Assembly (NCBI RefSeq): GCF_057098645.1
Contig: NZ_CM169472.1
Direction: 5' to 3' (one strand)
DNA: 64,000 bases
Shown: positions 44,510-44,991 of the stretch, piece after piece
How positions within the stretch are numbered: position 1 is the stretch's first letter
Layout: every line of letters begins with the position of its first letter
Notes under the pieces: generated by a model
The model's input: the letters and a program-made list of their open reading frames with translations, nothing else
Told to the model about the DNA's origin: nothing
The model's database searches: none
Position numbers and translations under genes: made by a program

Positions 44510-44722
44510 TTTCGTCTTCCTCTCAACGAGTGAGCTAGCTTGCTTATGGTGCGATGCTGACAAAGTTATCACACCAATTTCCAGAGTCCGAAGATATTTT
44601 CGTGAGTTAGATCAATAAACGTAGTTAAAAAAATTACTCTCAAAGAGGTAAATCTCGCTGCAGGCCGCGCCAGTACTGGCCTCGCTGTCGTCAGGTAATG
44701 TCCCTACAAATATTCCCACATT

Positions 44723-44738
44723 TGTGATGGCTCTCACC
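44723..44738. promoter_or_regulatory. CRP-binding-site-like motif in the uxaC/exuT divergent region
   Basis: TGTGA-TGGCTC-TCACC, close to the TGTGA-N6-TCACA consensus. Confidence 0.5.
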
Positions 44739-44991
44739 TTTTAAAGTTGTATGACAAGTTATCTTTCTGCCGTCGCAAATCATAAGTCGACGGAATGCAA
44801 ATTGCCGATTCACTCATTTGTTAGATGAATCGGGTTAACCGGTACGGAAGCCGAATTAGCACGAAACTTTCATGGCAACGTTCGGGGCGTGCCGGTTTTT
44901 TTTCGGTTACCCGGTCGTAACTAACATCTTCAGCCTCTGGCGGGATGATGGCCGCGCTTCCTGCGGATATAACAAAACGATGAGGTTTTAC

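Follow-up and report, generated by a model that had tools for sequence, protein, structure and literature searches.

The divergent intergenic region that separates uxaC, encoding glucuronate isomerase, from exuT, encoding the hexuronate transporter, has been analysed in a stretch of 64,000 nucleotides of contig NZ_CM169472.1 (hereafter, the window). In the RefSeq annotation of an identical stretch, this region covers positions 44510-44991 (482 bp), exactly where the original prediction, made from the letters of the window, had placed a divergent control region of 480 bp; the gene pair is flanked by uxaA, ygjV and sstT leftward and by exuR rightward. It is the curated exuTp/uxaCAp control region and belongs to the already known biology of the exu regulon. 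Its promoter half holds two CRP sites and two candidate operators, and its exuT-proximal part holds the exuT leader, which is a conserved structured RNA.

A query of 701 bases around the region was found with at least 95% identity in 5419 of 5426 complete Escherichia coli genomes, and the O145 strain RM9872 is 100% identical to it. A species scan with ExuT, using one genome per species, gave 80 loci of Enterobacteriaceae; uxaC diverges from exuT in 78 of them, with an intergenic spacer of 455-486 bp, and the N-terminus of UxaC (MTPFMTEDF...) is kept in 78 loci. The footprint alignment contains 79 distinct spacers, 75 of them from beyond the immediate E. coli group. In the promoter half of these 79 spacers, four sharply conserved blocks stand out, one on each CRP site and one on each candidate operator.

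The CRP sites

The original prediction had recognised a near-consensus CRP site in TGTGA-TGGCTC-TCACC (site 1), which keeps nine of the ten half-site bases of TGTGA-N6-TCACA, and this assignment holds. The CRP activator site curated in RegulonDB at -39.5 of exuT, atattcccacATTTGTGATGGCTCTCACCTTTtaaagttgta (Table S4 of Shimada 2011, PMC3105977; PredCRP supplement, PMC5772556), is letter-identical to positions 44710-44751 of the window, the mapped site falling on the proposed 16-mer and not elsewhere. Genomic SELEX (systematic evolution of ligands by exponential enrichment) recovered the uxaCA/exuT spacer with both of its CRP boxes, uxaC and exuT being among the known CRP targets retrieved (Shimada 2011, PMC3105977), and the quantitative PCR (qPCR) of the PredCRP study identified CRP as an activator of exuT (PMC5772556). 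Among the 75 sequences, TGTGA is conserved at 100% and TCACC at 96%, whereas identity falls to 67% in the spacer between them, which takes 20 forms among the 79 sequences. A spacer that drifts between half-sites that are kept is what is expected of a functional CRP site.

It has to be noted that motif statistics are weak by themselves. Matches to the CRP consensus with at most one mismatch number 4 in the 64 kb, a figure that 13 of 100 shuffles also attain, the expected number being 1.8. With a symmetrised position weight matrix made from 68 other RegulonDB CRP cores, site 1 scores 7.4 bits, which is rank 52 among 63,985 positions. This value and the 7.7 bits of the second site are at the median of the 68 training sites. 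The matrix scan, suggested originally as a check, does not set site 1 apart from the background of the window. Motif statistics were dropped as proof, neither consensus matches nor matrix scores being separable from background; site 1 counts as real on the strength of where it lies, how it is conserved and its being letter-identical to the curated site. That the 16-mer is a functionless chance match, as its modest rank and the unremarkable number of one-mismatch matches might suggest, is scarcely credible in the face of the curated identity, the SELEX recovery, the activation in qPCR, and half-sites kept at 96-100% around a free spacer in 79 sequences.

A second CRP site was overlooked by the original prediction, which had proposed just one. 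RegulonDB curates another CRP activator site of exuT at -161.5, ccgaagatatTTTCGTGAGTTAGATCAATAAAcgtagttaaa (Table S4, PMC3105977), corresponding to window positions 44601-44616 (site 2). It shares 7 of 10 bases with TGTGA-N6-TCACA, has the top matrix score of the intergenic region and shows a mean identity of 0.95 across the spacer alignment; the promoter that it serves is probably that of uxaCA. The right half of site 2, ATCAA, resembles an FNR half-site (TTGAT on the - strand), and a summit at 3,242,850 in FNR chromatin immunoprecipitation sequencing (ChIP-seq), assigned to uxaC/exuT (Myers et al. 2013, PMC3688515), falls some 10 bp from where Shimada places the site 2 box (3.24286e6; PMC3105977). 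Site 2 may be shared by CRP and FNR. The further-reaching proposal that it works chiefly as an FNR site, or as a CRP/FNR hybrid, coupling uxaCA/exuT to anaerobiosis, could draw on the nearness of this summit and on the - strand sequence TTGAT-CTAA-CTCAC, which has 8 of 10 bases of TTGAT-N4-ATCAA. However, it is unlikely, since RegulonDB and SELEX class 44601-44616 as a CRP box (PMC3105977), expression in glucose medium did not change with FNR, Myers et al. placing the site in a class that needs co-activation (PMC3688515), and the resolution of ChIP is too coarse to part site 2 from neighbouring sequence.

Three further strong CRP-type boxes of the window agree with published ones, namely the RegulonDB aer site (15721-15736) and two SELEX boxes, located in the ygjK/fadH spacer (29829-29844) and in the cyuP(yhaO)/tdcG spacer (57932-57947). 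Upstream of about 38400, collinearity between the window and RM9872 is lost, and coordinates of that strain do not apply there; aer (14115-15635) is displaced leftward by 1336 bp in the window, a length that matches an IS2-type insertion together with its target duplication in one strain or the other.

Table 1. Features of the uxaC/exuT region in window coordinates; operators, helices and the transcription start are predicted.
Feature	Position	Strand	Basis or remark
uxaC start codon (glucuronate isomerase)	44507-44509; coding sequence 43097-44509	-	RefSeq annotation, list of open reading frames
uxaC-proximal ExuR/UxuR-type operator AAGTTATCACACCAATTT	44563-44580		13/18 to AAATTGGTATACCAATTT
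CRP site 2 CGTGAGTTAGATCAAT	44601-44616		RegulonDB exuT -161.5; SELEX box
Inverted repeat, TTAC and GTAAA around a variable complementary core	44634-44652		Seen by eye in spacer alignment
Motif CCGCGCCA-N3-CTGGC	44665-44681		Conservation profile, alignment, variants
CRP site 1 TGTGATGGCTCTCACC	44723-44738		Curated exuT activator site, centre -39.5
exuT-proximal ExuR/UxuR-type operator AAAGTTGTATGACAAGTT	44743-44760		13/18 to AAATTGGTATACCAATTT; centre about -18.5 (RegulonDB offset)
Inferred exuT transcription start	44770	+	RegulonDB offsets -39.5/-161.5, site centres 44730.5/44608.5
Leader helix P1, CCGTCG with CGACGG	44770-44775 with 44788-44793	+	5'-terminal hairpin from inferred +1
Leader helix P2, CCGATTCA with TGAATCGG	44805-44833 (44805-44810 with 44828-44833)	+	Variable loop
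Alternative long-range hairpin	44837-44903	+	AACCGGTACG 44837-44846 with CGTGCCGGTT 44888-44897; CCGAA 44851-44855 with TTCGG 44881-44885
Leader helix P3, CGGT-ACGGAA-GCCG	44840-44853	+	Near-invariant element CGGTAYGGAWRCCGAA, GGA in loop
Leader helix P4, composite	44878-44918	+	Outer GGG/CCC, middle CGU/ACG, inner variable hairpin
Leader helix P5, CATC.TC...GA..GATG	44925-44950	+	Inner GCC/GGC
Leader helix P6, CCGCG-CTTCC-TGCGG	44952-44966	+	
exuT Shine-Dalgarno GAGG; ATG	44982-44985; 44992-44994	+	Block ACGATGAGGTTTTACATG near-invariant

Candidate operators and promoter architecture

AT-rich repeats containing AAGTTATC had also been suggested as possible ExuR/UxuR operators. This octamer is found at 44563-44570 and 44756-44763, and the window contains 7 copies of it against 1.33 expected, a number that no shuffle reached. 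According to the literature, ExuR and UxuR share a motif, bind each other's sites, and repress exuT and uxaCA. The palindrome AAATTGGTATACCAATTT has been used as a UxuR site (PMC8092373), and every 18-mer of the window was scored against it. Just 4 of 63,983 positions reached at least 13 matches out of 18 (44563, 44743, 46373, and 57183), three of them in exu promoters; the boxes at 44563-44580 and 44743-44760 each scored 13/18.

The uxaC-proximal box has the first octamer as its left end, continuous with a perfect UxuR half-site, ACCAATTT; the second octamer combines the right end of the exuT-proximal box with three bases, ATC, which probably belong to the -10 region (AGTTAT, 44757-44762). 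Thus, the suggestion stands insofar as the octamers lie in operator-type boxes; the operator itself would be an imperfect palindrome of about 18 bp, and not the octamer. The two blocks of highest conservation in the region hold these boxes. On the uxaC side, the conserved block reaches to 44554, and 77 of the 79 sequences share CAAAGTTATCACACCAATTT (44561-44580) unchanged. On the exuT side, the block AAAG(T/C)TGTATGACAAGTTATC spans 44743-44763; within it GTATGACAAGTTAT (44749-44762) is invariant in all 79, with variation at 44743, 44747, and 44763. The core of the exuT box is GT-N3-AC (TTGTATGACAA), unlike the GT-N2-AC core of the UxuR consensus (TGGTATACCA), and this box is best described as an odd palindrome of 17 bp.

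The gntP/uxuAB, uxuR, uxaB, and exuR promoters carry 18-mers of the same palindrome family, the K-12 boxes matching the palindrome at 14/18 and 13/18 (uxuA), 13/18 (uxuR), and 13/18 and 12/18 (uxaB), and CRP co-regulation has been reported for other members of the UxuR/ExuR regulon. In the window, AAAGTGGTATAACAAATA (46373-46390, 14/18) is located 47 bp upstream of the exuR ATG (46420), after the terminator-like GCCGCCTTCTCAGGCGGCTTTTT downstream of exuT, and is likely the autoregulatory operator of exuR, a prediction that matches the autoregulation reported for this gene. The remaining match, at 57183 (14/18), is inside the cyuP coding sequence and was taken as chance.

Two considerations limit the operator assignment. 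A consensus-free search for 18-mers recurring across the promoters of the regulon singled out the exuT box only (rank 1), and other segments of the window, which served as controls, nearly equalled it, the test not being discriminating; furthermore, the assignment is made at the level of sequence. With this qualification, 44563-44580 and 44743-44760 are supported as putative ExuR/UxuR operators.

It might also be, although we hold this to be doubtful, that the octamers represent promoter core instead of operator, with AGTTAT as the -10 element of exuT on the + strand and TGTGATAAC as an extended -10 element of uxaCA on the - strand, their invariance then reflecting polymerase contacts; such a reading would be compatible with operator function, since an operator and a -10 element can overlap. 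The invariance of the exuT block does run 2-3 bases beyond the 18-mer, through 44762, AGTTAT ends 7 bases short of 44770, the predicted start, and TG-T-GATAAC on the - strand matches 4 of 6 positions of an extended -10. Nevertheless, both hexamers are poor (3/6 and 4/6) and neither was picked up by a sigma-70 scan, the uxaC-side octamer runs on into the UxuR half-site mentioned above, and 20 invariant bases exceed what a -10 element alone explains.

The exuT start is placed at 44770 by calculation from the two RegulonDB offsets, -39.5 and -161.5. The original suggestion of catabolite-controlled hexuronate genes is supported by the curated CRP sites, the operator-type boxes, their conservation, and the published SELEX and qPCR, and it is very probable that, as the databases say, divergent promoters activated by CRP and repressed by ExuR/UxuR drive uxaCA and exuT. 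The proposed mechanism consists of two back-to-back promoters, uxaCA leftward and exuT rightward, each of which would have a cyclic AMP-CRP site on its upstream side and an operator for the GntR-family regulators ExuR/UxuR on its gene-proximal side, so that the genes would be on when glucose is absent and a hexuronate is present. At exuT, CRP bound to site 1 would recruit RNA polymerase from a class-II-like position, and the operator, at about -27 to -10, would overlap the spacer and the -10 element, a bound repressor presumably excluding polymerase by occlusion until hexuronate-derived inducers free the promoters. At uxaCA, site 2 and the 44563-44580 operator would take equivalent roles, with a CRP-operator distance, centre to centre, of 37 bp, versus 21 bp at exuT.

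Several points do not sit easily with this scheme. Activating CRP sites are centred near -41.5, -61.5 and so on. Site 1, at -39.5, misses the canonical class II position by 2 bp, and the authors of PredCRP have proposed a non-standard activation mechanism for it (PMC5772556). For uxaC, no start site was found, the start-site supplements of Mendoza-Vargas 2009 having an entry for neither uxaC nor exuT, and the best -10 candidate of uxaCA, TGTGATAAC on the - strand, would place site 2 near -50.5, a distance unsuited to either CRP class. The sigma-70 scan of the region gave no promoter on the + strand, as expected for activator-dependent promoters; its sole match, a promoter-like site on the - strand (44808 to 44779), was discarded, being of chance frequency. 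In comparison with class II CRP promoters (e.g., galP1 and melAB), exuT would likewise have its CRP site against the -35 position and a candidate operator over the -10 element and spacer; it differs in its curated distance, which is -39.5 and not -41.5.

Between the two CRP sites there are other conserved motifs. The inverted repeat at 44634-44652 appears in the alignment as CTCTCAAAGAG, CCCCGAAAGGGG, or CCCTCAAAGGAG, among other forms; its GTAAA is near-invariant, and the inner core varies between genera and stays self-complementary (CTCT/AGAG, CCCC/GGGG, CTC/GAG), which is odd for a stretch presumed to be untranscribed. The motif at 44665-44681 is midway between the CRP sites, upstream of both promoters and at about -97 from the inferred exuT start, and its E. 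coli form is a perfect 12-bp palindrome, GCCAGTACTGGC (44669-44680). Its spacing is not that of a sigma-54 element.

The structured leader of exuT

The leader of exuT, of about 222 nt (44770-44991), is conserved in length and contains near-invariant stretches, and its folding genus by genus recovers the same series of hairpins. RNAalifold with default settings gave P3 only or nothing, since variable loops misalign; with relaxed RIBOSUM settings it gave the six helices P1-P6 (Table 1), and this structure was afterwards tested with independent pair counts. In a MAFFT alignment to which no model had been fitted, 78% of the P4-P6 cells are paired, versus 42-47% when slid, 20 of 25 pairs are changed on both sides, and the covariation score, 0.229, is above that of all 500 shuffles (0.161 +/- 0.006) and of every slid control. 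In the model-fitted alignment, 82% of cells are paired, 21 of 25 pairs covary, and covariation rises to 0.271 against 0.160 +/- 0.007 (0/500 shuffles); this alignment is biased towards the structure, and the unfitted figures are the safer ones. Helix by helix, changes on both sides affect 10 of 12 pairs in P4, whose inner loop is U8 in E. coli, 7 of 8 in P5, and 4 of 5 in P6, with 96% of P6 cells paired (model-fitted alignment).

The 5' helices, P1-P3, jointly show a covariation of 0.157 against 0.097 +/- 0.006, again with 0 of 500 shuffles reaching it (MAFFT alignment). All six consensus pairs of P2 are changed on both sides, and folds of single sequences give this hairpin in nearly all genera. 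P1, with 90% of cells paired, is conserved in sequence and shows no compensatory change, and P3 takes the form CGGT-AYGGAN-RCCG across genera, three of its pairs being essentially invariant and the fourth alternating between U-A and U-G. Since P1 and P3 are conserved in sequence, pair changes are uninformative there either way. The exuT leader is, in sum, a conserved structured RNA, with compensatory changes in P2, P4, P5, and P6 across genera of Enterobacteriaceae.

Concerning its orientation, G-U cells outnumber A-C cells by 255 to 124, which favours the + strand, that is, the exuT sense transcript, and the fold of the E. coli leader has a z-score of -2.1 on the + strand versus -1.6 on the - strand. 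A covariance model of P4-P6 (R1) finds exactly one match per exuT locus, and none in the remaining window or in the uxuA, uxuR, and uxaB loci. The search of the leader against Rfam 15 returned no family, the three matches obtained being at chance level (E of at least 2.8) and all belonging to eukaryotic families. Outside the covarying helices, the P3 region (44838-44856) consists of the near-invariant ACCGGTAYGGAWRCCGAA, a short hairpin whose loop carries GGA, and the adjoining block ATGGCAAGGTTCGGG (44872-44886) is near-invariant as well. A GGA in a hairpin loop is the general form of a CsrA site.

The conservation downstream of 44872 might be thought to reflect coding, either of the older ExuT of 472 amino acids, which the program-made list of open reading frames starts at ATG 44872, or of a leader peptide from there, given that the reading frame from this position is open and in frame with exuT in Escherichia and that ATGGCAA is well conserved. 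Such an explanation is highly improbable. An in-frame stop lies within the 40 codons upstream of the exuT ATG in 55 of 78 loci, ATG 44872 is replaced by ATA, ACG, CTG, TTG, or AAG in several genera and has no Shine-Dalgarno sequence, indels are not multiples of three, and substitutions are base-pair compensatory and not codon-periodic. Both coding variants were rejected; as only Escherichia and a minority of other genera keep the 40-codon extension open, the start at 44992, giving an ExuT of 432 amino acids, is the real one.

Besides P1-P6, the leader may form a terminator-like long-range hairpin followed by a T-run at 44896-44903 (U8 in E. coli). As RNA, this pairing of AACCGGUACG with CGUGCCGGUU, plus CCGAA with UUCGG, is part of the minimum-energy fold of the E. 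coli leader, in which it takes the place of P3 and P4, and it is mutually exclusive with P3 and the 5' side of P4. The pairing is possible in 79.6% of cells across genera, versus 16-40% when slid; its covariation does not exceed that of shuffles, because its segments barely vary. In custom folds, a long hairpin (-18 to -28 kcal/mol) that borders directly on U5-U8 is confined to Escherichia, Citrobacter, Salmonella, Intestinirhabdus, and Trabulsiella; Enterobacter, Klebsiella, and Kluyvera are without the U-run. A standard terminator scan of the region reported none, the loop of this hairpin being longer than 8, and the published Term-seq data (3'-end tables of Adams 2021), obtained in cultures that do not induce exuT, contain a single exuT end, internal to the open reading frame, and none in the leader. 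Judged from these folds, the arrangement looks like an attenuator overlaid on a more widely conserved scaffold.

Relation to known systems and significance

Compared with the exuTp/uxaCAp entry of RegulonDB/EcoCyc for E. coli K-12, the region analysed here is the same locus, with both CRP 16-mers letter-identical and the same regulators. The uxaC/exuT region itself is a curated switch re-derived from raw sequence, which bears out the original prediction with nothing added, and the structured exuT leader is the single element for which no published description was found. The leader resembles 5'-leader attenuators and riboswitch platforms in having two incompatible pairings that share the near-invariant CGGTACGG and CCGTNCCGG, and, as in attenuators, one of these schemes ends in U8 in E. 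coli. Unlike them, its U-run is confined to one clade, its alternative helix lacks covariation, and it has no match in Rfam. It also sets exuT apart from the uxuA, uxuR, and uxaB loci, where R1 has no match.

In the literature, no report was found that links exuT to small RNAs, Hfq, Term-seq, or CsrA. Tentatively, the leader could be an undescribed cis-regulatory RNA of six helices, Enterobacteriaceae-wide and with near-invariant linkers, among them the GGA-loop hairpin, which in the Escherichia/Citrobacter/Salmonella group would adopt mutually exclusive folds. On this reading, to be taken with caution, it would add to the control of hexuronate transport by CRP and ExuR/UxuR a step after initiation (attenuation, translation, or stability), perhaps through a metabolite or a bound protein such as CsrA. 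The existence of the structure is much more likely than its being both regulatory and unreported.

Hexuronate uptake contributes to the colonisation of the gut by E. coli. In addition, after the loss of ExuR, ExuT reportedly serves for the transport of glucose (PMC6989600). Taking into account that the published control of exuT found here is all transcriptional, a structured leader of about 220 nt suggests a further layer of control, and offers for its study a concrete object with defined helices, an alternative fold, and invariant loops.

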